Below the pieces are notes generated by a model. It made no database searches, had not been told where the DNA came from, and was given only the letters and a program-made list of their open reading frames with translations. Shown here one piece after another: positions 1-52,700 of a stretch of 64,000 bases of DNA (the stretch's first letter is position 1; the number at the start of each line of letters is the position of its first letter). The translations under genes and the position numbers were made by a program. This DNA comes from a virus, in the IMG/VR virus record IMGVR_UViG_3300017917_001176, positions 1 through 64,000 of that record. One strand, 5' to 3'.

Positions 1-1
1 A

Positions 2-475
2 AAAGCAAAACCAGTAATTAAAAACAAGTTCTGGATTGTTGAACAGGATGGCGAAAAGGTTGCCACCATACAGGCCATTGAAGAAGGCGGATTTGTGTAT
101 GTGCATGATGACCAACGTGAACAGTTTCCCACAGTGAAGCTGCTCAAGAACAAGTTGAACATTGTGTTTGACAAATCTGCTGTTCGCAAACGAGAATCAT
201 TGTCTGTGACCAACGATGTATATGGATATCCAGCTGGTTTCAGGACCTACAATTGTTTGTATGATGTGAGCAGACGACTGCCTATTTTTACTAAAACTGC
301 AAAAAGCAAGAGCTATTTCTGCGCTGGACACTATGCAGTGAAATTCAACAACACCTGGACTCGCGCCTGCTGTCCAAAACTAATTACTCTACAGCGTTAC
401 CAGTTCATTGGTCCATTCAAGACCAATGAAGAGTTAACAGTAGAACTAGGAAAACTATCATGCAAAACAACCTAA
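2..475 (+). CDS. hypothetical phage protein, 5'-truncated
   Basis: Frame is open from base 2 (KAKPVIKNKFWIVEQ...) into ORF 95..475; the true start lies outside the window. Confidence 0.75.
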   Translation, partial: KAKPVIKNKFWIVEQDGEKVATIQAIEEGGFVYVHDDQREQFPTVKLLKNKLNIVFDKSAVRKRESLSVTNDVYGYPAGFRTYNCLYDVSRRLPIFTKTAKSKSYFCAGHYAVKFNNTWTRACCPKLITLQRYQFIGPFKTNEELTVELGKLSCKTT

Positions 476-681
476 CATACCACATCAACATGTTCAATGA
501 TCGTGTACGTGCAATGAATCAAACGCACAAACAGGATCTACGTTTGACCGCAGTAGAAGCAAATAACCTGCAGGCTGATATTTTTGCAATACTGTCGCAG
601 GTTTCAGCTTTGCAGTCCAAATTGGATGCTGCCGAAAGCAACGTGGTAGAAGTGGTTATGGATGGCGGCGGCTTTAAATAA
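460..681 (+). CDS. hypothetical protein (coiled-coil)
   Basis: 73-aa ORF overlapping the upstream stop, same strand. Confidence 0.7.
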   Translation: MQNNLTYHINMFNDRVRAMNQTHKQDLRLTAVEANNLQADIFAILSQVSALQSKLDAAESNVVEVVMDGGGFK

Positions 682-726
682 TATACCCACTTTATGTCAT
701 AAATAATAGATACTAGGATATCGATA

Positions 727-1014
727 ATGTCAAGACCCAAACCAACAGTGTTGCTGGAGTACGTAAACAAGAGCAACTACAAGAGTGAACAAGTACTCAG
801 CAGCGAAGGCATCTGGGCAGTATTCTACGAAGGCAAGCCCATCAACCTTAAGAACCAGAATGTACTGATTGCGTACCCAGGACCAAAATACAAAAAGGTC
901 AGCTTTAGCAATCCGGGCCATGCAATCAACTTGGCCAAAAAGCTAAACGTACTGTTCAAGACCGACAAATTCACAGTGGTCATTCTCAAGCAAGGTGAGC
1001 AGATCTACCCGTAA
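727..1014 (+). CDS. hypothetical phage protein
   Basis: 95-aa ORF with AGGA upstream and a TAAATA motif near 700. Confidence 0.75.
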   Translation: MSRPKPTVLLEYVNKSNYKSEQVLSSEGIWAVFYEGKPINLKNQNVLIAYPGPKYKKVSFSNPGHAINLAKKLNVLFKTDKFTVVILKQGEQIYP

Positions 1015-1345
1015 ACCAGGGCGTCAGCTCAATGCAGAAGCAGGGATGTTTCGTGGCCCTGTACCAAGACAAATTTGGCATAATACTCTCAATCCCGACA
1101 GTCTCAGACTAACCACCGAAGCATATGGTGCGTTGACTAAATACGAAAATAACAAGAACTATTCTTTCAAATTAGAGGTTGCAATGAGCAACCGCATGCT
1201 GCTACAATTAGACAGGTTGATGACAGCTCCTTACTACATAAGCGGCAGGAAGCAGATTCAATTGTTTGGCGAAGCTGATGCAATCATGCTACAATTGCAT
1301 GGTAGCAATCTAGCACAGTACCTGGAGAACTTAGCAAATCAGTAA
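995..1345 (+). CDS. hypothetical protein
   Basis: 116-aa ORF coupled to the previous gene. Confidence 0.65.
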   Translation: MSRSTRKPGRQLNAEAGMFRGPVPRQIWHNTLNPDSLRLTTEAYGALTKYENNKNYSFKLEVAMSNRMLLQLDRLMTAPYYISGRKQIQLFGEADAIMLQLHGSNLAQYLENLANQ

Positions 1346-1408
1346 CACTATTACTTTTTTACTAAGAAAAATATTTTTAAGAAATCTATCCAAAAAGATG
1401 TAAACAGG

Positions 1409-1437
1409 TTGACAGCAGGACTAAATAAATATACAAT
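1409..1437 (+). promoter_or_regulatory. sigma70-type promoter for the leader/tRNA region
   Basis: TTGACA-17 nt-TACAAT. Confidence 0.75.
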
Positions 1438-1491
1438 ACACACATGAACTAGCAACTGCCGGTTCTGTTAAACAAGGAAATGAAACAAAAA

Positions 1492-1629
1492 ATGAAAACG
1501 ACATTCGCTCTCTTTAGCAAATCACATACCCTAGGCTATTCAATGCCTGTGGCCTGTGCGTCTGCGTTTGAGATTAGTAATGATCGCACACCACAGGGAA
1601 ACCGGGGTCCAGGAGACCATGTAAGTTAA
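1492..1629 (+). CDS. putative attenuator leader peptide, 45 aa (MKTTFALFSKSHTLGYSMPVACASAFEISNDRTPQGNRGPGDHVS)
   Basis: Translated by hand; AAGGA at 1474, in-frame ATGs at 1480 and 1492; 3' end overlaps the antiterminator strand. Confidence 0.55.
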   Translation: MKTTFALFSKSHTLGYSMPVACASAFEISNDRTPQGNRGPGDHVS

Positions 1630-1656
1630 CATACCAGTTACTTCCAAACTCCAAGG

Positions 1657-1690
1657 ACCCTAGGATTAAAAACCCTAGGGTTTTTTGTTT
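1657..1690 (+). terminator. intrinsic terminator / attenuator hairpin
   Basis: ACCCTAGG-loop-CCTAGGGT followed by a T-run. Confidence 0.75.
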
Positions 1691-1915
1691 TGTAGCAAGT
1701 GCAATAGGCAACGCGAGCCTGCAGGGCACTATAAACATCCTGCTATTAATGTGGGCGGCAACGGGGATGATAAGTCTGTGGCGATAACGCAGATGTGTAA
1801 AATCCGTTAGTATTAAAGCATTCTCTACCCGCGAGGGGACAAGTGGGTTCATCCATGAAGAGTGCTTTAATACACACTTTGGATGAATCGATATCTGCTC
1901 CTGACGCGGATTTAC

Positions 1916-1943
1916 TTGACAAACAAGAACCAGAGTGTATAAT
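1916..1943 (+). promoter_or_regulatory. sigma70 promoter directly upstream of the first tRNA
   Basis: TTGACA-16 nt-TATAAT. Confidence 0.7.
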
Positions 1944-1952
1944 GTAAATATT

Positions 1953-2036
1953 GCCTCGGTGGTGTAATGGTAGCCACGCTGGTCTTAGAAGCCAGTGTCG
2001 AGAGACGTGTCAGTTCGAGTCTGACCCGAGGCACCA
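1953..2036 (+). tRNA. tRNA-Leu(TAG)
   Basis: Cloverleaf, long variable arm, encoded CCA. Confidence 0.92.
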
Positions 2037-2043
2037 CGTTTAT

Positions 2044-2119
2044 TCCCCAGTAGCTCAGCGGTAGTAGCACTTGACTGTTAATCAAGGTGTCGGTAGTTCG
2101 ATCCTACCCTGGGGAGCCA
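2044..2119 (+). tRNA. tRNA-Asn(GTT)
   Basis: Cloverleaf, CCA. Confidence 0.93.
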
Positions 2120-2120
2120 A

Positions 2121-2277
2121 TTTTCTGAGATAGACGGTAGGATTGCGAGATCCAACGAGTCCTTAGTAGCGGATGCTGGTGAACCAGCCTTTGTTTACCG
2201 TGAACACAAGTACGTACTCTCCTATGCGAGACAATCCAGCGAGGCCCCACCAAAGGGATAGCTGGGCACTCAGAAAA
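2121..2277 (+). ncRNA. unidentified structured RNA between tRNAs
   Basis: Closed by TTTTCTGAG/CTCAGAAAA; internal hairpins such as GCTGG-TGAA-CCAGC. Confidence 0.45.
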
Positions 2278-2287
2278 CCTTTTCAAT

Positions 2288-2365
2288 GCGGGTAGACAGG
2301 ACAAGGGGCGTCCAGCAGCCTTCCAAGCTGAAGATCGCGGAGTTCAACTCTCCCTACCCGCTCCA
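2288..2365 (+). tRNA. tRNA-Gly(TCC)
   Basis: Cloverleaf, T discriminator, CCA. Confidence 0.88.
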
Positions 2366-2370
2366 TACAT

Positions 2371-2445
2371 GGGCTGCTAGTGATAATGGGAGCACGGGGG
2401 CTTTGCACGTCTCAGGTCGGGGTTCGATCCCCCGGCGGTCCACCA
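2371..2445 (+). tRNA. tRNA-Ala(TGC)
   Basis: Cloverleaf, G3:U70, CCA. Confidence 0.92.
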
Positions 2446-2453
2446 TGTTTTAT

Positions 2454-2527
2454 TGCGGGTAGGGTGGTCACCACACCGGTCTCATAAGCCAGGTGCATCG
2501 GCAGTTCGAATCTGTCACCCGCTTCCA
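2454..2527 (+). tRNA. tRNA-Met(CAT), initiator-like with a reduced D-arm
   Basis: CAT anticodon, 1:72 mismatch, T-arm, CCA. Confidence 0.75.
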
Positions 2528-2534
2528 GTTTTAT

Positions 2535-2610
2535 CTCTCTAAAGTGTTATCAGGTTGCATCCGCGGTTTGGGGCCGTGTGGTCTTGGTTCGAATCCAAGT
2601 AGGGAGACCA
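2535..2610 (+). tRNA. tRNA-Pro(TGG)
   Basis: Cloverleaf, CCA. Confidence 0.9.
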
Positions 2611-2617
2611 TTTTTGT

Positions 2618-2691
2618 TGGCGTGTGGTGTAATGGTAACACAACAGACTTTGACTCTGTCGTTCCAGGTTCGAGCCCTGGCATGCCTGCCA
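2618..2691 (+). tRNA. tRNA-Gln(TTG)
   Basis: Cloverleaf, CCA. Confidence 0.92.
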
Positions 2692-2698
2692 AATTTTT

Positions 2699-2776
2699 GC
2701 TCCCGTAACTCAGTTGGATCAGAGTACCATGCTACGAACGTGGGAGTCGGAGGTTCAAGTCCTTCCGGGAGCGCCA
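2699..2776 (+). tRNA. tRNA-Arg(ACG)
   Basis: Cloverleaf, CCA. Confidence 0.93.
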
Positions 2777-2781
2777 GTTAT

Positions 2782-2856
2782 GCCCTTGTATCCTTAGTGG
2801 TAGAGGTCCTGTTTTGTAAGCAGGGTGTGGTGGTTCGATTCCATCCTGGGGCACCA
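2782..2856 (+). tRNA. tRNA-Thr(TGT)
   Basis: Cloverleaf, CCA. Confidence 0.9.
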
Positions 2857-2862
2857 TTCAGT

Positions 2863-2936
2863 GGTGTTGTTGATGTAGTGGTTGCATACTTGACTGTGAA
2901 TCAAGGCGAGAGGGTTCGATCCCCCACAACACCCCA
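2863..2936 (+). tRNA. tRNA-His(GTG)
   Basis: Cloverleaf with G-1:C73, CCA. Confidence 0.9.
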
Positions 2937-2944
2937 AATTTTAT

Positions 2945-3020
2945 GCCTCGTTAGCTCAGCGGTAGTAGCGTCCTCCTTACAAGTGGAATGTCGGCGGTTC
3001 AATCCCGTCACGAGGTACCA
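2945..3020 (+). tRNA. tRNA-Val(TAC)
   Basis: Cloverleaf, CCA. Confidence 0.92.
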
Positions 3021-3025
3021 GTAAT

Positions 3026-3103
3026 GCCCCTGTGGACAAATTGGTAAAGTCGGCTCTCTCAAAAGGAGCAGTTGTCTCCGTTCGAATCGGAGCAGGGGTA
3101 CCA
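3026..3103 (+). tRNA. tRNA-Leu(CAA), short variable loop
   Basis: Cloverleaf, CAA anticodon, A73, CCA. Confidence 0.85.
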
Positions 3104-3110
3104 GTACAAT

Positions 3111-3186
3111 GCAACTTTAGCTGATGTGGTCATAGCGGCGGTTTGAAGCACCGTTGAAGTAGGTTCGATTCCTACAGGTTGCACCA
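3111..3186 (+). tRNA. tRNA-Phe(GAA)
   Basis: Cloverleaf, CCA. Confidence 0.9.
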
Positions 3187-3190
3187 TCAT

Positions 3191-3264
3191 GCTCTTATAG
3201 GTAAATGGCATACCGCATCCATGGTAAGGATGTATTCTAAGTTCGATTCTTAGTAAGAGCACCA
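3191..3264 (+). tRNA. tRNA-Thr(GGT)
   Basis: Cloverleaf, CCA. Confidence 0.9.
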
Positions 3265-3275
3265 GTAAAGTTTAT

Positions 3276-3350
3276 GCCCCCGTAGCTCAGTGGTAGAGCA
3301 TCGTCTTGATAAGGCGAGGGTCGGTGGATCGTTCCCACCCGGTGGCACCA
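3276..3350 (+). tRNA. tRNA-Ile(GAT)
   Basis: Cloverleaf, atypical T-loop ATCGTTC, CCA. Confidence 0.88.
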
Positions 3351-3354
3351 ATTT

Positions 3355-3429
3355 GGAAATGTAGCATAATGGTAGTGCAGCGTCTTCATACGGCGTACAG
3401 TGAAAGTTCGACTCTTTCCATTTCCACCA
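3355..3429 (+). tRNA. tRNA-Met(CAT) elongator, or Ile2
   Basis: Cloverleaf, CAT anticodon, CCA; Met vs Ile2 not resolvable by eye. Confidence 0.85.
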
Positions 3430-3436
3430 GTTTAAT

Positions 3437-3511
3437 GCAGGTATAATTCAGTGGTAGAATGTCTCGTTGCCAACGAGAATGTCGTCGGTTCGAACCCGAC
3501 TACCTGCTCCA
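3437..3511 (+). tRNA. tRNA-Gly(GCC)
   Basis: Cloverleaf, CCA. Confidence 0.93.
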
Positions 3512-3518
3512 GTTGTTA

Positions 3519-3593
3519 CGGTCTTTGGTGAAATGGATATCATCTCTGGCTTCGAACCAGAGGGTGTGGGTTCGATTCCTGCAAGACCGGCCA
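3519..3593 (+). tRNA. tRNA-Arg(TCG)
   Basis: Cloverleaf, CCA. Confidence 0.9.
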
Positions 3594-3599
3594 AGATAT

Positions 3600-3689
3600 G
3601 GAAGTGTGGCTGAGTATGGCTTAAGGCAGCAGTCTTGAAAACTGAAGGCTCGAAAGGGTCCGTGGGTTCGAATCCTACCACTTCCGCCA
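3600..3689 (+). tRNA. tRNA-Ser(TGA)
   Basis: Long variable arm, G73, CCA. Confidence 0.93.
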
Positions 3690-3695
3690 AACAAT

Positions 3696-3783
3696 AGAGA
3701 GTTGCGCGAGCGGCTAAAGCGTCCTGTTTGCTAAACAGTGAGTCCGAAAGGGCACAAGGGTTCGAACCCCTTACTCTCTGCCA
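3696..3783 (+). tRNA. tRNA-Ser(GCT)
   Basis: Long variable arm, G73, CCA. Confidence 0.92.
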
Positions 3784-3803
3784 GTTTGTTGTATTTTTGC
3801 TAC

Positions 3804-3859
3804 TGTTGTAAAAATACAACAAAGTTTTAATTGACCAGAATCCGCTATCCATATACAAT
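3804..3859 (+). promoter_or_regulatory. sigma70 promoter with upstream palindrome
   Basis: TGTTG-N8-CAACA (3804-3821), then TTGACC-17 nt-TACAAT (3831-3859). Confidence 0.7.
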
Positions 3860-3919
3860 AGTGGCTTAGTTAGAAAATACCACTAACTAGCTGTTCATTA
3901 AAAATTTGTTGTGTACATT

Positions 3920-3995
3920 GCACCGTTCGTCTATCGGTTTAGGACACCAGCCTTTCACGTTGGTAAGATGGGTTCGATTCCCATACGGTGTACCA
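3920..3995 (+). tRNA. tRNA-Glu(TTC)
   Basis: Cloverleaf, CCA. Confidence 0.92.
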
Positions 3996-4078
3996 TATTG
4001 AAATACATTAGCAGCGTCGTACCGGTCGCCGGACTTGGGTTGAATTCCCAATAGTGTGTTTCAATATGGTAAAGTTTT

Positions 4079-4165
4079 GGATGTGTAGGAAAATTGGTAA
4101 CCCCAGTGGACTGTAAATCCGCCGCCCTCCGGGCACTGCTGGTTCAACTCCAGCCGCATCCACCA
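4079..4165 (+). tRNA. tRNA-Tyr(GTA)
   Basis: Long variable arm, CCA. Confidence 0.92.
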
Positions 4166-4356
4166 AATTTCCGTTCCCGCTTACGTTAAATGCGGGCGCT
4201 TGATTAGCGATAGAGATCCGGTGTCCAGAAGACCGTTAGCGCAGACGTAAGCAGAATCTGGTAGCATGATCCACACAGGCGAACAAGCAAAGGTGGCGAC
4301 AGGGTTGTAAACTCAGTACGGGGCGACACGAAAAACGTAGCCGTGCAAAGAATTTA

Positions 4357-4431
4357 GGTCTCAAAGTGTTCATGGACGCACGTAGCACTGTCACTGCTAA
4401 AGAAGGGGATCGTTACCCCTTGAGACCGCCA
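4357..4431 (+). tRNA. tRNA-Asp(GTC)
   Basis: Cloverleaf, atypical T-loop ATCGTTA, G73, CCA. Confidence 0.88.
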
Positions 4432-4436
4432 AGTTT

Positions 4437-4519
4437 GCAGATAACGGATAAGGCGGGCGCCGCTTCGGGGGCGTCTAATACCGGTTGCCACAAAGGTTCG
4501 AGTCCTTTGGTCTGCACCA
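4437..4519 (+). ncRNA. tRNA-like RNA lacking a normal anticodon arm
   Basis: Acceptor stem GCAGAT/GTCTGC-ACCA and T-arm AAAGG-TTCGAGT-CCTTT; central hairpin capped by cTTCGg. Confidence 0.6.
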
Positions 4520-4576
4520 ATTTAGAGGAGACTTGCATCCGTGCTCAGTCTTAAACAACACAAGTGTCCTGTAGCA

Positions 4577-4783
4577 AGACGTTCTGCCTAATCAGCAGAT
4601 AGTATGACCCGTACGATGAGAAGTGGTGTGATAGCCAAGGGTGGTAGTCTTCTTACCGAAAGGCCGCTGGCAATGCGAGAACGGAACCTGTCGTGGAGAG
4701 GGTGGAGGCCGTGCGTGATGGTGTGCGATGTAAAGATCGTCACTTGATGCGGTATAATTACCTCCGGGGTTCGCAGAGCATCT
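4577..4783 (+). ncRNA. unidentified ~205-nt structured RNA
   Basis: Closing stem AGACGTTCTGC/GCAGAGCATCT; GC-rich with internal hairpins; no credible ORF. Confidence 0.45.
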
Positions 4784-4885
4784 AATTTAACAAGGAGAAA
4801 GACATGAAACGAGGTAAACTCTAGTGTCACTCTGAACTTCCATGTGGTTCAGGGTTGGCACGTTAAATCAATAAACATGACCAAC

Positions 4886-4962
4886 CCCTCGCTGGCGTTA
4901 ACGGTTAGCGCATCTGACTCTTAATCAGCAAGGTCCAGGTTCGAATCCTGGGCGAGGGACCA
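4886..4962 (+). tRNA. tRNA-Lys(CTT)
   Basis: Cloverleaf, CCA. Confidence 0.9.
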
Positions 4963-4965
4963 TAT

Positions 4966-5042
4966 GGGAGTATAGCTCAACTGGCTAGAGCAACCGGCTT
5001 TTAACCGGTAGGTTCAGGGTTCAAGTCCCTGTGCTCCTACCA
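4966..5042 (+). tRNA. tRNA-Lys(TTT)
   Basis: Cloverleaf, CCA. Confidence 0.93.
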
Positions 5043-5177
5043 TATGAAAACTCTTTGTAGTGGCTACACTGGAACAACACTAAACTTGACCTATTCTGCA
5101 GAACAGTCAAGAGGTGCCAGGAAGAGCGGGGCCACCATGGATTCAAGCGCCACAGAGAGTTTCCATATGGTAAATTT

Positions 5178-5252
5178 GGGCTGCTGGTATAATTGGGAAC
5201 ACACCGCCTTTGCACGGCGGAGTACGGGGTTCAACTCCCCGGCGGTCCACCA
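5178..5252 (+). tRNA. tRNA-Ala(TGC), second copy
   Basis: Cloverleaf, G3:U70, CCA. Confidence 0.9.
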
Positions 5253-5255
5253 AGT

Positions 5256-5466
5256 TTTGTAAGTGTTAGCAAGTGAAGTCACGCTACAAAGGTTTCTTCG
5301 AAGGACCGATGTAGTAGAAGGTTACGGGTTCGATGCCCGACGGATCGGAAGATCCGGGTGCATGGTGGCGCACAGACTGGATGAATCCTAAGTAACGTAC
5401 CGAGTCCCAGCCGGCCTTGATAAATGGGTGAATGGTGCATATAACGATGGTTGCACTACTTACAAA
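5256..5466 (+). ncRNA. unidentified ~210-nt multi-hairpin RNA
   Basis: Closed by TTTGTAAGTGTTAGCAA/TTGCACTACTTACAAA; TTCG and GGAA tetraloop hairpins inside. Confidence 0.5.
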
Positions 5467-5474
5467 TTCAATAT

Positions 5475-5549
5475 GTTGCATTAGACTTCTGGTGAGGTCA
5501 TCACCCTTTCAAGGTGACCAGACGGGATCGTAACCCGTATGCAACTCCA
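5475..5549 (+). tRNA. tRNA-Glu(TTC), divergent second copy
   Basis: Cloverleaf, T-loop ATCGTAA, T discriminator, CCA. Confidence 0.8.
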
Positions 5550-5613
5550 GGCCTCGCCCTAACACATGGCGTATAATAGGACAAATAGTGTGTTGTCTAC
5601 AGACCCCCGCTTT

Positions 5614-5648
5614 GCTAGGTTGTGCGGCAAACAATCTAGCATTTTTTC
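5614..5648 (+). terminator. intrinsic terminator
   Basis: GCTAGGTTGT-loop-ACAATCTAGC followed by ATTTTTT. Confidence 0.65.
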
Positions 5649-5656
5649 AAAAGTTG

Positions 5657-5685
5657 TTGACAGGTATTCGTATCTGTCTTATACT
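5657..5685 (+). promoter_or_regulatory. sigma70 promoter for the large ncRNA
   Basis: TTGACA-17 nt-TATACT. Confidence 0.75.
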
Positions 5686-5701
5686 AGAGACTTAGTTAGA
5701 T

Positions 5702-5834
5702 AACTTTATTTGTTCTGTCTTCTGTAAGCTCAGAAGCAAGATCAAGCATTATGTAACCAAAGCAAACATTCCAGTAAACTCGAGTAAAGCTGGTGAGCGA
5801 GGCATATAGTGCAGAAGGCAGAACAAATAAAGTT
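5702..5834 (+). ncRNA. long-stem-closed RNA element
   Basis: 25-bp stem AACTTTATTTGTTCTGTCTTCTGTA/TGCAGAAGGCAGAACAAATAAAGTT. Confidence 0.5.
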
Positions 5835-5835
5835 T

Positions 5836-6715
5836 AAGGGCAGTTTATTGTCCTCTGGGCGGCTTGCCGTCTAGGAAGAATAAGAGGGGCGACTCTCCCA
5901 AAGCTGGAATGCCTACATACCAGCGCCGCTTGCGGTTCATGTAAACAAGCCTGCTCACTGGGGTGACCCAGCGTTCACTGATAAGACCGGTGGATGTAAC
6001 AGCAAAGCTGATGTATGGGGAAGAATGTGCGTCGACTGGCCCGCAAGGGAACCAGGGTGCATGAAAAGTAACAGGTGGTGCTGACTTCCATACAAAACCA
6101 ATCAGTCAGTTGGTATGAGAAAGGGTAGTGTATTGGTTCGAGGGGTCGCACCCAAGGGCTCGTGCGCAATGTTCGTGGTTGATGGACTGTTTTGATGCAG
6201 GACATTGGTCGCAAAACATCACTGAGTAGCTCGCGAGGCAAAAGGTATGTGGTGAGTTGTATTGGGTAGTCCAAAAGATTATTCAGCAACAGAGGCAGCT
6301 CATCGCGGTAGGTTGATATAGCGTAATGGTAACGCGATTGCCTTTTAAGCAATTGACTGTAGGTTCAAATCCTACTATCAAATAAAAATGCAAAGACTGC
6401 CTCGGTTGTATGTGAAAAGTATCTAACTCTCAGAGCTTTGGCTAACTGAGACTAATGAAGCTCGCAAGGTGACATTAGTTTGTGGAGGGGGGTTCGTAAC
6501 GGTTTAGCGACTGTGAATGGCTCGCAAGGTCAACGGAATGGAATCCGCAGAATAGCATGCAGCGACACGTCTACTGCCTGACGTTAAAAACGGCGATACT
6601 GTAAGCAGACTAGGAGATCCGCAAGGACCCTAGTGGATGTCTAGAGAAGGGTTGCTCGCAAGGCGGCTTATAATGCTAGAGGTGCTTATGGGTAGGATGT
6701 AATCTCAGTCCGCCA
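5836..6715 (+). ncRNA. large structured RNA, probably GOLLD family
   Basis: About 880 nt with no credible ORF, many GCAA/GCGA tetraloop hairpins, located in a phage tRNA array and containing a tRNA; family assignment is from context only. Confidence 0.6.
6312..6383 (+). tRNA. tRNA-Lys(TTT) embedded in the large RNA, no encoded CCA
   Basis: D-arm GCGT/ACGC, anticodon arm ATTGC-CTTTTAA-GCAAT, T-arm GTAGG-TTCAAAT-CCTAC. Confidence 0.78.
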
Positions 6716-6784
6716 CTATACTAAAACACATTGCCGAGCGACGAAGGAAATGAGTAGTGTGTTTTAGTATATCTCGTTTGATAT

Positions 6785-6859
6785 CTGGCGTTCGTTCAAT
6801 GGATAGGACAGCATTCTTCTAAAGTGCGAATAGAGGTTCGATTCCTCTACGCCGGGCCA
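6785..6859 (+). tRNA. tRNA-Arg(TCT)
   Basis: Cloverleaf, CCA. Confidence 0.92.
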
Positions 6860-6861
6860 GG

Positions 6862-6890
6862 TTTACAAAAAATATATTCCGTGTTATACT
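6862..6890 (+). promoter_or_regulatory. sigma70 promoter (extended -10)
   Basis: TTTACA-17 nt-TATACT with TGn. Confidence 0.6.
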
Positions 6891-6915
6891 GCTGTTTTAC
6901 TACAGGAGGCAGACA

Positions 6916-7215
6916 ATGAACGACACCAACGACATATTGGGTACTCCCATTGAAGTAGGTTCCACTGTTATAACATGCCACAATGGTAGAATAATTGTAG
7001 GACGCATTGCAGAAATATACGAAGAAAGAGGCAATGTAAAAGTTGAACCTTTGCTATTTGATACAAATGGCAGAAGACCTCCGCCCGGAATGAAACCATT
7101 CCGCCGCGCAGACTACAATGTGTTTGTAGTAAACGATCAAGAATTGGTTGTGGGCACTCTTAAAGGATATTGTCATAATACAGGCGAATTTGACGAAGAT
7201 TACGAAGAAGATTAA
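6916..7215 (+). CDS. hypothetical protein (small beta-barrel-like, acidic tail)
   Basis: Strong RBS AGGAGG, 99 aa. Confidence 0.75.
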   Translation: MNDTNDILGTPIEVGSTVITCHNGRIIVGRIAEIYEERGNVKVEPLLFDTNGRRPPPGMKPFRRADYNVFVVNDQELVVGTLKGYCHNTGEFDEDYEED

Positions 7216-7222
7216 AAACAGT

Positions 7223-7300
7223 GCACCGGTGGCAGAGAGGCCCAATGCAAGGGATTGCAAATCCCTAAAACCGCTGGTTCGAATCCAGCCCGGTGCTCCA
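7223..7300 (+). tRNA. tRNA-Cys(GCA)
   Basis: Cloverleaf, U73, CCA. Confidence 0.92.
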
Positions 7301-7323
7301 GTAGTTAACATAGAAAGCAGCAT

Positions 7324-7809
7324 ATGAAAATTGGATTTAGTTTTGGTAGATGCTTGGGCAGTATCATGCGCGGAGAAGTGGCGTTTGAAGATGTGCTGTG
7401 TATCATTGCTCGCACTCGCATGGAAACTGAACAGCATGTTCGCGAGGTAGTTGACGGGTACATGTATCAACCTGGTTATCTCATAGGTCTGGATCAAGCT
7501 GCCTGTGAAGAAATGGGTGTTCGTTTGTTCAACTCAGGCAAGATTCTTGAACCACGTGCCAACGGAATCCGTCCAATGAGTGTACCACGTGACTATATCT
7601 GGATGGATCTATTTCCTACTGCGCCCAATGGCGCAAACAGCGATGCAGTAAACTCTGCATGGGATCACTATCGCATGTTGATCACACTCACAGAACAACT
7701 GCCCGAAGCTGGGTTTGTTCCTGAACACAGTGAAAAAATCAAACCTCCAACCGAGGAAGAGCAATTGGAAATGCAACGAGCTGCACAAATGCTAATGAAT
7801 TCTATCTAG
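7324..7809 (+). CDS. hypothetical phage protein
   Basis: 161-aa ORF. Confidence 0.8.
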   Translation: MKIGFSFGRCLGSIMRGEVAFEDVLCIIARTRMETEQHVREVVDGYMYQPGYLIGLDQAACEEMGVRLFNSGKILEPRANGIRPMSVPRDYIWMDLFPTAPNGANSDAVNSAWDHYRMLITLTEQLPEAGFVPEHSEKIKPPTEEEQLEMQRAAQMLMNSI

Positions 7810-7818
7810 GAGTAGGCC

Positions 7819-7983
7819 ATGGACTCACCATTTCGCCGCTGGTTACAACAGATCTGGTACGAGAACTGCAAAGAGTACGAAGGCTACAATCAACTGCCTT
7901 ACACACTTCAAGAATACTGGAGTCGATACAAGTATTGGCTCAAACGTGAGTACAGGCATCAACATGGCAAAGAAAAAAGTTAA
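7819..7983 (+). CDS. small aromatic-rich hypothetical protein (54 aa, MDSPFRRWLQQIWYENC...)
   Basis: Hand-translated; RBS AGGAG; fills the gap between neighbouring genes. Confidence 0.7.
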   Translation: MDSPFRRWLQQIWYENCKEYEGYNQLPYTLQEYWSRYKYWLKREYRHQHGKEKS

Positions 7984-8356
7984 GAATCATTCTTTTTTAC
8001 TCAGTTGGGACTGCAACGGTCTCGAAGTCTGTGTACCAATCCACGAACTAGAAGAAAAATACAAACAAGCCCAAAAAGAACGTATGTGGCACACACTGGC
8101 CAGTCCAGATGCCCAGGACCCTGGTAATCCCATGGACCGTGAAATTGGTCGCATATACCACAGCATAATGATGCGGGCCAGAGTCAATCCGCAACGTCAC
8201 TACGAAATCTACACCATCCAGACCACACCTGGCACCACTGCACAGGATCTACAAGAAATGTTTACCATGAATCCACAGTCAGCCGCAGACTTGATACGCA
8301 AACATGGTAACAAGCTATACAGCGATCGTAGCAAAAATACAACAAAAATTGTGTGA
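7964..8356 (+). CDS. hypothetical phage protein
   Basis: ORF 7946..8356 with likely ATG at 7964. Confidence 0.75.
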   Translation: MAKKKVKNHSFLLSWDCNGLEVCVPIHELEEKYKQAQKERMWHTLASPDAQDPGNPMDREIGRIYHSIMMRARVNPQRHYEIYTIQTTPGTTAQDLQEMFTMNPQSAADLIRKHGNKLYSDRSKNTTKIV

Positions 8357-8405
8357 TTTTTACAACAAAATTCCGGTTGATTTAATTCTTGTTTGATGCT
8401 ATACT
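8350..8405 (+). promoter_or_regulatory. sigma70 promoter with upstream imperfect palindrome
   Basis: TGTGT-N8-CAACA, then TTGATT-17 nt-TATACT with TGn. Confidence 0.6.
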
Positions 8406-8454
8406 TGTCTTTGTGCTAATATTTGCACATTCAACAATTTAATGGAGAAGCTCA

Positions 8455-9510
8455 ATGACCAAGCGAATTTCGCGTCTTGTAATTGAGGTCGCTCAAGAAG
8501 TTCACACAGAACTCAAAGAGAAATACGGCCTTACTGACAAGGAACTTGAAAAACATAAGGCACGTATTAAAGCAAGCGGCTACGGATTCCCTATTGGGCT
8601 TGCTCTGTTAAAACTTGCAGACATTCACATTGACTACGAAGTGCAACGTGATGTCATTGTCAAGCATGTACTCAACATCATCCGCAAGTTTGACCCACGC
8701 ATTGTCGGTGCGGCATCGTGTGTGCGACTGCCTAAGAGTAAATTTCCCAATCGTTACTATGCCTATGATGGCCAGCATCGTACCATTGCCATGGCAATTC
8801 TGGGCTTTACCGAAATCCCTGCATGTTATGTGGAAACAGAGGACGAGCGTTTTGCTAGTCATGCGTTTGAGATTCTCAACGACAGCGGCATTAAGAAAAT
8901 TGGCAAACCAGACCTGCACCGTATTCGTTTGAATCTGTTTGCAAAAGGCAGTGAAGACAAAGCAAATCTAGAAGCTCGTAAATTGCAAGACCAGTTTGAT
9001 GTACTCAAAATTGACTTGCAAGAAACTGCAAAGCGCAACAACCCTAACCAGTGCGGACCCAACAAGTATTGGTTCAGTCACTTTGACTATGCTTACAAAG
9101 GCATCAAACAGGATGCCAGCGGCGCTACACTGCACGACATCCTTGACGCTATCAAGACCACCTGGCCCAACGAAGAAGAAATTGACCAAGGTGTGTTTAT
9201 TGGCCTGTGGCAGTTGAACAACTGGAGCAAGGAAATGTGCATTGCTCAGCCTGCGGGGTGGATGAAAGCAGTGCTCAAGGAAGTGGGCAAGACCTTTGGT
9301 AACAGTCATGTGGTACATGACATGGCCAAGGCTCAATGGGGTCATGTGGTAGGTAACTGGTCGGCACCAGACGGTGCGGCCAAGTTTATCCGTGAGATCT
9401 ACAAACTGCATGGTGGCAAAATAACTCTGCCCTTCAAAGGACACGAGATTGGCATTGCCGACAAGAGCAACATCTGTGATGCAGTTAAGCCTGCTGTGAA
9501 AGGACTGTGA
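8455..9510 (+). CDS. ParB/Srx-superfamily DGQHR-domain protein
   Basis: Motifs IDYEVQRD and YAYDGQHRT; RBS GGAG. Confidence 0.7.
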   Translation: MTKRISRLVIEVAQEVHTELKEKYGLTDKELEKHKARIKASGYGFPIGLALLKLADIHIDYEVQRDVIVKHVLNIIRKFDPRIVGAASCVRLPKSKFPNRYYAYDGQHRTIAMAILGFTEIPACYVETEDERFASHAFEILNDSGIKKIGKPDLHRIRLNLFAKGSEDKANLEARKLQDQFDVLKIDLQETAKRNNPNQCGPNKYWFSHFDYAYKGIKQDASGATLHDILDAIKTTWPNEEEIDQGVFIGLWQLNNWSKEMCIAQPAGWMKAVLKEVGKTFGNSHVVHDMAKAQWGHVVGNWSAPDGAAKFIREIYKLHGGKITLPFKGHEIGIADKSNICDAVKPAVKGL

Positions 9511-46720: not shown

Positions 46721-49700
46721 CTAGGGTCTTTCAAGCCAGATAGTACCTTGTGGTACACTGGAGATTATTGTGCTTTGATACGTTGCAGTATTTGCATTAC
46801 CAGAGAAGCCATTGTTGACTTCAAGGTCTTGTGTAATACTCAACACCGTATCACGAGTGATAATTTGTTCAGCACTTGCATCAGTAATTATGCTGCCCAC
46901 AGGGTGAGCTAACGGAATACTGGTTCTTGCAGCACCACGTCTGATATCAGTCAGTACATTGCGTCCATAATCAATACCAAAGTAATTGATCTTTTCTGCA
47001 TTGATCCAAATAGATCCAGGCTGGTTCTGAGAAGCATTTGGCTCTGGCAGCTTGGCCACATCGTCGACTGCAACTTCTTCTGAATCGTAACTGAGTTCGC
47101 TGGTCAGTATCACTGTGTTAGCAGCTGGCAAACGATAATACACTGTTGGCAATTTGTAATCTGTGAATGCTTTGTAAGCAATCACATTACCGTAGTCAAC
47201 ATTACCATTTACAACATTGGCCGTGAACACGTTCATTTGCAGACTATCAATCACTTGTCCAGGTACCAGTTCTTCTGGTGCATGGCTGCTGAATGTGTCA
47301 ATGTACTTGCCGCCGTTGATGGTAATATCTTCAGGGCGTGTGCCTAGTTCGTTATCAGTGTAAACGCTGGTGATCTGTGTATCCAGGCTCAGAATGTCTG
47401 TTGCTGTTTCTGTATACGGTTGTCCAATTACTCGTGCGCCTGGATAACTGGTACCTGGAACTAGATCTGGAATATCCTTTGCCAGATGATCCAGTACACC
47501 ACCAATGGTATAAGACTTGGTGCTGGTAATTGCCACACCACCTAGTATGCCCAGTGTAGTGTTAGCTTCCAATGTGTACCCTGCACCCAGTGTGGCAGTA
47601 TTTGCAAACGCCAGTGTGTAGGTATCCTTGTTCAAGAACTGTGTGGTTCTCAATTGCAGTTTGGTACCAGTGGTGTCAAAGAATGTTACCAATGCACCAG
47701 CTGGAATATTTGCTGTGAACGGTGTGTTCAGTTGCACTGTGGTTGTGTTCACACTCACGCTGTTGTAGTCAATGTTAACATCTTTACCACTGCTTCGTGC
47801 ATACTGCCATGTAAAGTTTGCAAAGCGACCAACTTGTTTAACTCTTGCACCAGTTGGCATGCCTGTACCTGAAATGGTCCAGTTGCCTAATACTTTGGTA
47901 TAATTGTCTACATAGACAATGTTGTCGCCTTTGCTTGCAGCTCTACTGGTTACCAACTGTATGCTTGCACTGTTTGGTCCAGTGAATGTTAGTGTTGTTC
48001 CAGATGGAATATCATCAACAAATCCGTAACTGAATGACACACGTTGATTAACGCCTGCAGAAACTGTGGCTGTTGCAAATGCAATGGCAATTGACCACAG
48101 TGTGGTTTCTGCATTGTAACTGACTCCTGTTACCAAACTATCGTCTGGTAGCAAGGATGCAGTGACTGTCATGCCTGCAAATACTTCGCCTGCTAGGTCT
48201 GTGGATGGAATCAGCACGGTCAACGATGTTGCATCTGTTACTGCGTCCCAGTCAGCTGATGGAGTTCTTGTACCTGCAGACAACACAGGATTAACTGCGC
48301 CCAGCTCAATGTAAGCTTCACTTTGTACGCCCGGGTAACCCCAGATGATTGTACTTTCGTTGCCTACAACCACAAACTTTTCACCGTCCCAGGTTACGTC
48401 TGAGAAGTTGATAGTCTTAACTGCGGCAGGACTCAGTGGGCTGATAAAATTATCAGCGTTGAATGCTCTGAAGTTTTTAAACACTTCAATACCGTAGTTA
48501 ACCACAGTTTTACCAATAGTGTCACTGCCTAGTTCTGCTGCGCCTGATCTGAGTTGTACTGGACTATCTAACTTGTTCCAGATCAGTGTACCAGCTGAAC
48601 CAACTGCCACCAACCAACGATCTGTTTCGCCACTGAGTGCAATAGCATTGATCTGTTGTCCACTTACACCATCGCCTTGTCCAATTACATCAATTGGGGC
48701 TTTCATTTCAATCCATGGGTAAGCACTGTCTCCAGCTTTGCCTGCATCGTAGTTGTAGCCTTTGGCATAACCCAACAGCGCATCTTCTAATCTAGCATAG
48801 CTGGTAATAAAGAAGTTACCGTTGTTGCCTGCTGCAATTACAAAACCTTGTTGCAAGCGATTGTTGCTGGTACCACTGGTTGTAAAGTATCCTGAGTCTT
48901 GCAGATCCACTGCATAGGTTGTTCCGTTGTTGTCAGTTAGGTCGCCAAATGATTGAGAGAACAATGTCAGGAACTGTATTGGAGTTCCATAAATTGTAGG
49001 CTGTGGTTTCGCACTGTACCAACCTTGATCCAGATCCAATGAAGTATCATACGGATTCATCAGTATGTTGCTACCGTTACCTGCTGCAATCACGTAGTTG
49101 CCTCTGGTGCCAGTTACTTCGGCCACTGCTGTAAAGTCAATTGCCTGACTTGCATTCAACAGTGTACTACCAGAAGTGTTGTCAATGGTTGGTGAGAACT
49201 GATATTCAGTTACAACTTCTTTTGACCAATCCACTGCATTATCACTGGTGAGCAGTGTGGCTTGATTACCAACTGCAATCCAAGTGGTTCCATTGAACAA
49301 ACAAGCATCGCGAAGATTAATTTGGTTCTCTGAAATAAATGCAACTACCCAGTTTGTGCTGTTCTTGCTCAGTGCGATCAGTCCGCGATTACCAACAGCA
49401 ATGTATTGATATTCGTGTGTTGCTGGAACAACACCGCTGTGTTTTACTGCGTTCCACTCATTGCCCTGCGAGCTAACTGCGTCATTGGTATTACTGTCAT
49501 CCAAACGATTGGTATCTGGACTGCTGTACAATGTAGCAATATCTGGAGTACCAGGTTGATTGTATGCAGCCACACGGTCAATTGCATTGTCAATGTCTGA
49601 ACCACGTAATTTTTGTACTACAGTTTCATCGTCAAAAATATTCAAGTTCAGAGTATCTGTGCCCAACACAGTTTTTATTGCTAGGTACACGTTGTTGTAA

Positions 49701-52700
49701 CGTGGTAGCAATTGGTCTGGCAAGTTAGCAAACAGTGTTTTTGTAACATCTGGTACCACAATGATGTCCCCAGGATGATATGTGGTGTATGGCTTCCACA
49801 TACGTACTTTGGAAACATAAGTGGTTCTATCAAAACTCAATGTGGTTGTGATAGTTCTCACAGTCTTGTTTTGAGTAGAAATGTTCACGTTTGCAGAACT
49901 TCCACTCAGTACCACATAAGCACGAGCACCAAATCCGCCGCCGCCAGTGAATGTCACAGTTGGGGTTGTGGTGTAACCTGATCCGGCTGTTACAATATCA
50001 ATTTCTGTAACTTGTCCAGCTGGGTTAATGATTGCGGTTGCGGTTGCACCTGTACCATTACCGCTGATAGTAACAGTTGGAGCTCTTACATATCCTTCGC
50101 CGCCGTCTATAACAATAATAGACTGTACGCTGTATTTGTAATTGTTTAACCAATTAACTGATGCTGAAGCTGCAATAGCGTTAGCATCGCGAGGTACGTT
50201 GATGTTCAGTGGACGATAGGTTCCAGTTATGCTGTCATACACTGATGGGAAGTCAAAGTCGGTGCTGTCAGCCACTGCATATTCAAGGCCTTCATAATCT
50301 AATAGATACTCACGCACCTGTGTACGATATGGTTTAACTTCGTTAATATACTGTTCAAAGTAATCCTGTTGATCTCTGGTGTATGCTGCAAACTGTTCCA
50401 GTTTACGAATCTTATGAACCACAGATACAAAGCTGGTCTTAATTAACCAATCTACATTTTTCTGTTCACTTAAGATGTAGTTGATTAATACAAAGAACAA
50501 TTTGTTAATTTCAACGCTGTCTGTGTTGGTTAATATTCCATCAAACATGCCTTGAATAATATTGCGCAGTTCAATGGCATTGGTCTTGGCAAAACCAATG
50601 TTATCAAAACCAGTGTTGTCAAATCCAACCAATGACAGGTCAGTGTTATACAACGATTCGTTCAGTTGTATTGTTCCGTTTTGAGCACCAACAATTACTG
50701 GAGCAAGTGTAGAGTCAATTGCATATAATTCAAAGTTACCGTTGCCATCATCCAGTACCTTGATAACATCGCCTTCTGCTGCTGATGTTACTGTGGCAAT
50801 ATCCTTGAATTCCTGCACAATGTAGTCCACTTGTGTTTGGTCGTTGTAACCGGTTGTGTACCAGTTAGCATAACTCCAGTATCGGTTAGAGTCATAACTT
50901 TGAATTCTGTTCAAACTCCACTGAGGAGTGTTGGCTTCTGTAAATTCGTATATGGTCCAGTAGCCTTCGTTTTCGCCGTCGTTCAATACCAATACCTTGT
51001 AGCCGTCAATCAAGCCAGCAACCGGAATATAGTTTAATTCATCATAGGTATTCACAACCTGGTTATAGAAACCAGCTGCATCTGGAGGAACTGGTTCCTG
51101 TGCTTGTAGTCCTGTTAGATCTTTGGATCTAACAATTAGATTTTCTGCAAGGAATCGGTTCAAGTAACCTACAAAAATTTGAATTGCTTTTGCAGGATTC
51201 TTTATCATGGTCTGACGAGGACGAACACCAACGCCAACCTGATTGTTTTCTTTCAGACGTAGATCAGGAACAACTTCACCCACACTGTTTTCGCCGCTGA
51301 GACTGTCAATCAGTTTGCTGATGTATTTCTCTGGAACTTGACTCAACGGGTTATTCTGTTGTACCAGCTCGTACTCGCTGTGTGCAATGTTCTCATTGAG
51401 AGTGCGAGCATATTCAATCTTTAAGATAATATCACTTGCACTCAAGTAATTGTTTACATTGTACAAGCTGAATGCGTTAGATGCCACAACCGCAACGTAA
51501 GGAATATCTTGTCCACGTGGATCTTGAATAAAGTCTGCAATCGCAGCCACACTGCTGGTACGAGTGGTATATGACGACTCAATGTTGGTCTTGTTCTTTA
51601 CCCAATAGTAGTACTTGGTTTTAATCAACCCAGACTGACTATCGTAGAACGACTGCTCCACATACGCACTGTCATCTGCATATTTGGCTTCTCCGTTGTT
51701 TGTGGCAGCGTACTGACTAGGCAGTACTAGGCTCTCAACCCACTCACATACTTCAATTGTGCTGCCTGGGAACAATTGACCCCAGTAGGTCACACGATAG
51801 TTGATGTCACCTTGCTCGTAATCAATATAACGACATGTGTCTAGATTCCACCAGGTTCTACCAACTTGAACTTCATTCCAAGAACTGTTGGTGTCGTATG
51901 TTACTGCTGACACTGTGGTACGGTTGTACACTGCTGGGTCATATGCGGTTTTGTAATCTAGGTCTTGATCTGCTACGCCTAGTATTTTGCCTTTGACTGG
52001 ATCAAAATAATCTAGGTCAGTTACAATCAGCTGAGTGTTTTGATCATACAAGAACGCCTGGTTGATGTAGTCAATGTCTACCTTGTCTCCACGCTCACGC
52101 AGTTTTACCCAACCTTTGCTCAGTGTTGGGTTAGTAAACAGATGCACTGCACCTGCATCTTCACGATAGTAATCGCTGCGAGTTGAACCAACCACAACCC
52201 AATCGTTGTTAATTGCAATACCAGAACCAAAGTTATCATTGAACAAGATCAATGAGTTTTGTAGAACTTGATTGTATAGATACTGACTTGGCTCAGACAG
52301 TGTTTCGCCAGGAATTGGCAAATAATCATACACGTATACTGCACCAGAGTTCTTTAGTACGTCAATGAATCGTGTGGTATCACGATCAAACAGGGTACTT
52401 AGATTATCAAATGTACTGGTTTTCAGTGTTGCGCCGCCCAAGCTGCTTACTAATAAAGATTCTCCAGTGGTATTATCTACTTTTACAATAGTACCAAACT
52501 TTTCAGGAGTTCCAGAATCTGGGTGCTCAAATATCTGCACCTGTTTGTAGATCTTTAATCCTAGGTCTGATAGGCCTGTTCCTACGCCTGGTAAAATATT
52601 AATGCGCTTGTCTTTAGAACGCTCGGTTGTATAGATTTTCAACGGCGAACGACTCACTGTAACTGTTGCCAGTGCTGTGGTTGTATTTGCGCCAGTGATT

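Follow-up and report, generated by a model that had tools for sequence, protein, structure and literature searches.

Classical leader-peptide attenuators include trpL, hisL, leuL and pheL and the multivalent thrL and ilvL. In this study, we describe a leader cassette composed of a sigma-70-type promoter, a short open reading frame (ORF) and an intrinsic terminator, which lies ahead of a tRNA array in a lake-water phage; the window analysed, a stretch of 64,000 nucleotides (nt), is the first 64 kb of the 77-kb IMG/VR record IMGVR_UViG_3300017917_001176. As in the classical systems, the short ORF is promoter-proximal, an antiterminator shares nucleotides with the terminator, and the stop codon is placed so that a finishing ribosome would favour the terminator, a geometry that we measured here. 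In contrast to them, the phage leader does not repeat the codons of one to three amino acids in a run, and the cassette precedes tRNAs rather than biosynthetic enzymes. Moreover, no 1:2 helix competes with the antiterminator, so that an untranslated leader should read through and not super-attenuate. Comparison of the cassette with its relatives makes it reasonably probable, in our judgement, that it is a ribosome-mediated leader-peptide transcription attenuator which tests the decoding of every amino acid.

By analogy, the closest known system in logic is the upstream ORF (uORF) attenuator of whiB7/wblC in Actinobacteria, in which a uORF of tens of codons likewise lies before an intrinsic terminator with an antiterminator alternative. 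The uORF of whiB7 in M. smegmatis contains every amino acid except Cys, its amino-acid content dictates which starvations are sensed, removal of its single Trp codon makes the response to Trp deprivation significantly weaker, and loss of its start codon raises basal read-through and expression (PMC10274678). A stall anywhere in the whiB7/wblC uORF leads to read-through, and we propose that the phage leader behaves in a like manner. The cassette is nevertheless not a member of that group, as there is no sequence or structural homology, and a phage tRNA array with noncoding RNAs lies downstream, whereas the whiB7 uORF precedes a transcription factor. In addition, all 20 amino acids are covered in 86% of the 127 distinct phage leaders among the matches listed, whereas whiB7 uORFs vary and are Ala-enriched.

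In the literature we found no account of a leader that covers all 20 amino acids, nor any of attenuation acting on the tRNA arrays of phages. Nor does the leader cassette belong to a described family in Rfam, Pfam or PHROG, which were searched. Other systems offer partial parallels. In antibiotic-sensing attenuators (tylosin-dependent yxjB, msrD/mef and PA5471 of mexXY), a stall in the leader ORF likewise leads to bypass of a terminator, which signals in a general way that ribosomes are in trouble (PMC6851288, PMC10314930, PMC13041342). They differ from the phage leader in depending on drug-dependent arrest at particular peptide motifs and in controlling resistance genes. The long tRNA array (trn operon) of Anabaena sp. 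PCC 7120, which is silent and is induced 100-1000-fold under impaired translation (PMC8421152), resembles the phage arrays in being an accessory tRNA array, but a repressor and promoter repeats mediate its induction, in which no leader takes part (PMC8421152, PMC10272220); the text of PMC8421152 does not mention a leader ORF or attenuation for this array. Phage tRNAs have been reported to rescue infection from tRNA-cleaving defences (PMC11555353).

The leader cassette and its amino-acid coverage

The three elements of the cassette, which an earlier note had read from the letters of the window, are all present on the plus strand. The promoter (1409-1437) consists of TTGACA at 1409-1414, a 17-nt spacer and TACAAT at 1432-1437; it scores 11/12, ranks second among the sites in 8 kb, has a spacer (CTAAATAAA) that is conserved in relatives, and is identical or nearly so in loci L002, L003, L005 and L007. 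The leader ORF (1492-1629) runs for 45 codons from the ATG at 1492 to the TAA at 1627-1629. An alternative in-frame ATG at 1480 would give 49 amino acids (aa); the homologues align to the 1492 start. The intrinsic terminator (1657-1691; 1657-1690 in the earlier note) has an 8-bp stem (1657-1664/1674-1681), a 9-nt loop and a U6GU4 tract reaching 1691. The minimum-energy fold has a z-score of -3.15 for the whole leader and -1.76 for its 3' part. The tRNA array follows at 1953-7300 on the same strand, with 30 tRNAs for 19 amino acids, none for Trp, and with embedded noncoding RNAs including GOLLD. Our counts agree with those given earlier: 35 distinct codons and 19 amino acids without Trp in the leader, 19 amino acids without tRNA-Trp in the array.

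Short ORFs are plentiful in this region, and at least 19 amino acids are found in 8-15% of random or real stretches of 45-47 aa, so that the 19 of 20 in the window is not significant alone. It is the conservation and covariation seen in relatives, and not the window by itself, that raise the observation above chance at the level of sequence.

The relatives were gathered in two sets. A degenerate promoter pattern gave 10 viral and 51 metagenome loci with 41 distinct leaders. A pattern restricted to the terminator and to the 3' arm of P2, the antiterminator hairpin considered below, gave at least 120 further viral loci, with 90 distinct leaders among the matches listed, and the union of both sets comprises 127 distinct leaders. 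Counts given below for the second set, for the union and for the downstream arrays all refer to the matches listed.

The leader ORF is conserved as a frame. An ATG-initiated ORF of about 35-52 codons with its stop inside P2 is found in 127/127 distinct leaders; in 29 relatives, the ATG falls in one alignment column, behind an A-rich stretch with GGA or GAG. The distance from ATG to GATCG takes nine values between 27 and 35 codons, every one a multiple of three, and the two other reading frames of the leaders contain a mean of 3.7 stops. The summed entropies of the three codon positions are 50.2, 46.8 and 48.6, and third positions are thus not more variable, which suggests that translation matters and not the peptide product. 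Moreover, in the last ten or so codons the frame differs among homologues while the nucleotides GGGUCC are constant, the 5' arm of P2 being read in all three frames. Equal variation at the codon positions, together with this shifting C-terminal frame, points to selection on translation, length and stop position rather than on a folded product. A peptide core, ..AKQAGFMPS.W....S.DRTPE, is conserved in the leaders. The 45-aa product of the window matched no Pfam or PHROG family; its database relatives are unnamed or labelled 'hypothetical protein', and gene callers predict the peptide in a few metagenomes.

The most striking property of the leaders is their amino-acid content. All 20 amino acids are present in 33 of the 41 distinct peptides ascertained by promoter (19 in six, 18 in two) and in 80 of the 90 ascertained by P2 and terminator (19 in nine, 18 in one), one of the latter having only 35 residues. 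In the union, 109 of 127 (86%) have all 20, 15 have 19 and three have 18, which means that at least 19 amino acids occur in 124/127. The corresponding null expectations for all 20 are 1.4-2.3% in sliding windows over the phage's own proteins, 1.5-3.6% in random peptides and 2.9% in peptides drawn from the pooled composition of the family itself; alternative frames of the same leader DNA gave 0/80. This content is maintained while the residues that provide it move: Cys occupies at least eight alignment positions across the leaders, and His and Tyr also shift position. The leader of the window has lost the Cys of its nearest relatives and gained another, with LW replaced by CA. Leader clusters differ at about 65% of residues (60-70%), and simulated neutral replacement at 60-70% retained all 20 amino acids about 5% of the time. 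We conclude from these comparisons that the amino-acid diversity of the leader is itself under selection. Among the 127, the window leader is the only one without Trp, and with its 19 of 20 it stands at the degenerate margin of what is a trait of the family.

No run of a single codon occurs in the leaders; their content is spread over 31-40 different codons and all 20 amino acids. Compared with the long genes of the window, several codons are over-represented in the leaders, namely AGG (16% vs 1%), GGG (31% vs 5%), CCC (37% vs 9%), ATA (33% vs 15%) and TAT (98% vs 48%). This skew may reflect selection for rare codons or a constraint of RNA structure, two causes that are not separable here.

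The genomic context of the cassette is equally constant. A tRNA array on the same strand was found 200-1211 nt past P2 (median 466) in 84/84 loci with at least 1.6 kb downstream, and these arrays differ among the 84 loci in tRNA order and content. The codon-diverse ORF and covarying antiterminator that the earlier note had asked to be sought before tRNA arrays in related phages are a general feature of the family. On the other hand, its claim that the leader samples the same amino acids as the array did not hold as a family rule. Strict leader-array matching was rejected, since among 43 loci with at least 18 downstream tRNAs, arrays lacking one to seven isotypes keep leaders with all 20 amino acids. 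With regard to Trp, the leaders without it are that of the window and that of the diverged L007, whose 38 residues comprise 19 amino acids, and no tRNA-Trp is present in the array that follows either of them. In the complete L007 genome, however, tRNA-Trp is found in a separate cluster 140 kb away. Among the nearest and first-set loci, relatives with Trp in the leader and a well-sampled array all have tRNA-Trp, while among the 84 loci two leaders with all 20 amino acids precede arrays lacking it. That Trp loss in the leader tracks loss of tRNA-Trp from the array is thus a suggestive hint from two cases.

Two observations on the 5' end of the cassette stand apart from this. The promoter spacer at 1415-1431 (CTAAATAAATATA) is kept almost base for base in distant relatives and contains ATAAATA, which we take to resemble a T4-type late box, and the element may be a composite early/late promoter; relatives often have two such leader promoters in tandem, about 90 nt apart. 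In two clades (L007:7355-7566, L100, L118, L132 and L135), the ORF begins with ATGATG about 7 nt past the -10 box, which would make the mRNA leaderless or nearly so; these leaders keep the P2/terminator design.

P2, the terminator and P1

The alternative helix described in the earlier note, which pairs 1604-1615 with 1649-1661 and overlaps the 5' arm of the terminator, is present in the minimum-energy fold of the window. This hairpin, P2 (1604-1661, plus strand), is the predicted antiterminator and is made up of an outer helix (1604-1610/1655-1661), a middle helix (GGAG 1612-1615/CUCC 1649-1652) and an apical hairpin. The TAA at 1627-1629 lies inside it, and nucleotides 1657-1661 are common to the 3' arm of P2 and the 5' arm of the terminator. 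Across relatives, P2 measures 44-68 nt, its 5' strand is formed by the last codons of the ORF, the stop codon is always enclosed, and its 3' strand ends on nucleotide 4 of the terminator 5' arm (CCCY), so that ACCC(Y) is the common part. The stop codon falls 21-28 nt past the start of the P2 5' arm (10-15 nt in a few clades), 19-30 nt ahead of the 3' arm and 54-65 nt from the end of the U-run.

The outer helix of P2 forms 7/7 pairs in 37 of 39 distinct sequences of the first set and in 84 of 90 of the second. Seven covarying arm types occur in the first set: GGGGUCC/GGACCCC, AGGGUCC/GGACCCU, GGGGUUC/GAACCCC, GGGGCUU/AAGCCCC, AGGGCUU/AAGCCCU, GGGGUCU/AGACCCC and, in one clade, a 13-bp helix, GGGUUUAAGUUAA/UUAACUUAAACCC; the two commonest types are seen again in the second set. 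The outermost pair, which involves position 4 of the terminator, is G-C in 19-22 sequences and A-U in 13-14. Covariation at a nucleotide that also belongs to the terminator shows that the overlapping, mutually exclusive P2 form is itself selected. Per-sequence arm tables were used for P2, as MAFFT and covariance model (CM) alignments slip by 1 nt at its 5' arm, and pair counts from those alignments therefore understate the helix. The terminator is the RNAalifold consensus, with 98.6% of cells paired in 36 sequences and three pairs doubly changed.

GGGGU is present in both the P2 5' arm and the terminator 3' arm, which compete for ACCCC. When both conformers were folded, as the earlier note had suggested, the complete P2 and terminator forms proved nearly iso-energetic, lying within about 1 kcal/mol of each other with a median difference of 0.6 kcal/mol, and in these folding models P2 and the terminator appear to constitute a poised strand-exchange switch.

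A further hairpin, P1 (1546-1597, plus strand; 1546-1560/1585-1597 in minimum-energy folds), lies within the ORF. In 62 of 102 local folds of relatives, its two strands bring the Trp codon UGG into pairing with the Pro codon CCA, with CUGUGG/CCACAG in the clade of the window and CUCU(U)GG/CCAGAG elsewhere, and this change of arms between clades looks compensatory at the sequence level, with moderate support. RNAalifold on MAFFT alignments of the ORF region gave no or weak consensus. The UGG/CCA pairing is probably the reason, at the level of RNA, why W...DRTPE is conserved; in the window, the P1 pairing persists though the Trp codon is out of frame. A cmscan search at E<=1 over 1-9000 gave no Rfam match at 1409-1915, T-box and known leaders included.

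Proposed mechanism and its alternatives

Five features emerge from the comparison of the leaders: the ORF looks translated, its stop codon lies within P2, P2 and the terminator are mutually exclusive and show covariation, coverage of all amino acids is selected for, and the tRNA context is invariable. The proposed attenuator would act as follows. Polymerase would start at the 1409-1437 promoter, and a ribosome would load on the short ORF. A ribosome keeping pace would unwind and occupy the 5' half of P2 and stop at the UAA inside it; ACCCU would then be free, the terminator would form and transcription would end near 1688-1691. If the ribosome were late or absent, through a stall at any hungry codon, a general inhibition or a failure of initiation, P2 would close first, termination would be weakened and polymerase would run on, first into the 1691-1915 RNA in the window, or an ORF of about 55 aa in most relatives, and from there into the tRNA array. 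The stall would be relieved as phage tRNA accumulates, which would amount to a negative feedback. If it works as the whiB7 uORF does, an ORF with every amino acid could register a shortage of any one charged tRNA, and the window leader, which has no Trp, should be blind to a shortage of charged Trp-tRNA. The general sensor of translation proposed in the earlier note is thus favoured by the conserved frame, the stop inside P2, the covariation and the 109 of 127 leaders with all 20 amino acids, but not in the form in which the leader mirrors its array.

We suggest, more tentatively, that the leader could be a single-ribosome test of the whole charged-tRNA pool, made over about 45 codons before polymerase reaches the terminator. 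Any depletion or cleavage of tRNA, whether by starvation, host anticodon nucleases or other tRNA-targeting defences, might then turn on the phage's near-complete tRNA set, so that the cassette would serve both as a negative-feedback homeostat for translation capacity and as a built-in trigger of counter-defence. If true, attenuation would reach beyond sensors of one to three amino acids, and beyond the variable uORFs of whiB7, to a pan-amino-acid sensor, and no attenuator would have been described for tRNA genes before this one. The evolutionary signature is quantifiable, with 86% of leaders having all 20 amino acids against about 2% expected. Moreover, the consensus sigma-70-type promoter makes the idea directly testable with simple reporters, and the cassette could serve as a compact sensor of translation stress in synthetic biology.

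Several points weigh against the attenuator as proposed. The AGGA at 1475-1478 lies 13 nt from the ATG at 1492, which is poor spacing for ribosome loading in the window, and equal conservation at the codon positions together with strong structure across the ORF region also fits a noncoding RNA. A ribosome on the stop codon covers, by geometry, the middle of P2 and leaves the outer 5' arm just behind its trailing edge, so that the blocking of P2 is partly an assumption. As the two conformers are nearly iso-energetic, the terminator may form partly even without a ribosome, and the regulatory range could be modest. Furthermore, the window has a second promoter at 1916-1943 (plus strand; 12/12 consensus) directly before tRNA-Leu(TAG), which on sequence grounds supplies its array independently of the leader; in the window the attenuator would therefore only add to array transcription and would directly gate the 1691-1915 RNA. 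The earlier note had raised this promoter as a caveat, correctly for the clade of the window, to which it is restricted; it is absent in L102 and L099, where consensus promoters stand in tandem ahead of the leader and a sigma-70 scan found no promoter-like site from the leader terminator to the first tRNA. In those two loci the array would be transcribed from a recognisable promoter only via read-through of the leader terminator, although phage-specific promoters missed by such a scan could exist in relatives. With no Trp, one more ATG upstream and a separate promoter for its array, the window copy is a slightly eroded member of the family.

Four other explanations were weighed against the same evidence. 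The cassette could be an ordinary gene for a highly expressed phage protein of 45-50 aa, with P2 stabilising the 3' end as a structure and the tRNA neighbourhood incidental, which would suit the conserved ORF, the strong and often tandem promoters, the terminator and the conserved core ..AKQAGFMPS.W....S.DRTPE, as well as the 'hypothetical protein' calls in a few metagenomes. We regard this as unlikely, as third codon positions show no excess of variation (50.2, 46.8 and 48.6), the ten C-terminal residues are read in varying frames over a fixed GGGUCC, and the codons of the conserved W, P and E form base pairs among themselves in the RNA. There is moreover no protein-level reason for a content of all 20 amino acids, no Pfam or PHROG family matched, and the covarying ACCC(Y) common to P2 and the terminator would be left unexplained. 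A structured RNA switch in which a ligand, a protein or a tRNA sets the P2/terminator balance, the ORF being incidental, draws on the leader fold (z-score -3.15), on the even nucleotide conservation at all codon positions and on the long hairpin, at -22 to -38 kcal/mol, that the ORF region of every homologue adopts. Such a switch is improbable, however, in view of the ATG-initiated open frame in 127/127 leaders, with nine length classes all in frame, and of the stop codon, which is fixed inside P2 whatever the frame of the arm. RNA constraints cannot yield all 20 amino acids, as the 0/80 in alternative frames illustrates, and no Rfam family matched, T-box and known leaders included.

It is also conceivable, though we give it rather little weight, that the terminated leader RNA of about 245 nt, or its peptide, is a product acting in trans as in rnTrpL/peTrpL, with attenuation secondary. 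Strong tandem promoters would make such a short RNA very abundant, its structure is extensive and conserved, and two reports provide a precedent in small RNAs derived from attenuators (PMC6614838, PMC7968998). No target complementary to it was found, no search aimed at one having been made. A trans-acting product is compatible with the attenuator proposed above, but it accounts for neither the content of all 20 amino acids nor the invariable downstream tRNA array. Very unlikely, finally, is a sequence-specific arrest peptide in which the conserved W...DRTP stalls the ribosome for one small molecule. An invariant Trp 9-14 residues ahead of the conserved DRTP does recall the arrest-peptide spacing of TnaC (W12...P24) and SecM (W155...P166). 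However, the window has no W at all while keeping the RNA pairing, and with a ribosome halted at the P, the 5' arm of P2 would be covered and the terminator favoured, strange behaviour for an inducer. The arrest-peptide idea was rejected, as W and P lie anywhere from 9 to 14 residues apart and the P1 pairing explains the W and P codons.

The downstream region and the phage genome

Downstream of the cassette, the window and most relatives differ. In the window clade, the first content of read-through transcripts would be a conserved structured RNA (1691-1915, plus strand) that directly abuts the leader terminator; it has a z-score of -2.99, no Rfam match and, in seven sequences, 53 consensus pairs of which 15 show compensatory changes. 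In most relatives, tandem consensus promoters precede the leader, and a Shine-Dalgarno sequence and the ATG of the ORF of about 55 aa are found 18-22 nt past the terminator, and some 200 nt separate this ORF from the array. This ORF, which looks co-transcribed by read-through, has the motif HTLT.EQ..KLI..K..RA..Y (L102:4820-4999, L099:2660-2827 and L007:7580-7744) and is absent from the window; it gave no Pfam match and only a weak match to phrog_28270.

The coding region upstream of the cassette stops at 1345, before the leader promoter. Viral contigs contain 428 relatives of the protein encoded at 2-475, and the nearest of them have tRNA arrays in the same location as in the window, with 76-80% DNA identity from the promoter through the region past the leader terminator. 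CheckV estimates the completeness of the 77-kb record at 17%, which implies a jumbo phage, and related contigs reach 340-380 kb. A blastn search with two leaders against 50,697 phage records gave no match. The upstream protein led to distant cultured relatives, namely the PA5oct group, Phosso and Atu_ph07; in MIJ3 (PA5oct group) and Phosso there was no CM match and no comparable cassette ahead of the main tRNA array.

Within the array of the window, the cmscan search (E<=1, 1-9000) matched only tRNAs and GOLLD in Rfam. The GOLLD RNA lies at 6249-6711 (RF02032, 197 bits, E 6e-55), with a tRNA-Lys(TTT) embedded at 6311-6384. A gap of 168 nt between tRNA-Asn and tRNA-Gly (2120-2287) contains no tRNA or Rfam match, and similar gaps are found at 3784-3919, 4432-4885 and 5550-6248. 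The complete relative G001 (354,959 bp) has 29 tRNAs in four clusters, of which, in the stretches examined, only the largest is preceded by the leader cassette; a separate cluster contains an amber-reading tRNA with anticodon CTA (L144:1726-1799), labelled Pyl by ARAGORN. At the far end of the window, a single minus-strand ORF of 5,738 codons (46721-63937) runs to the window end.

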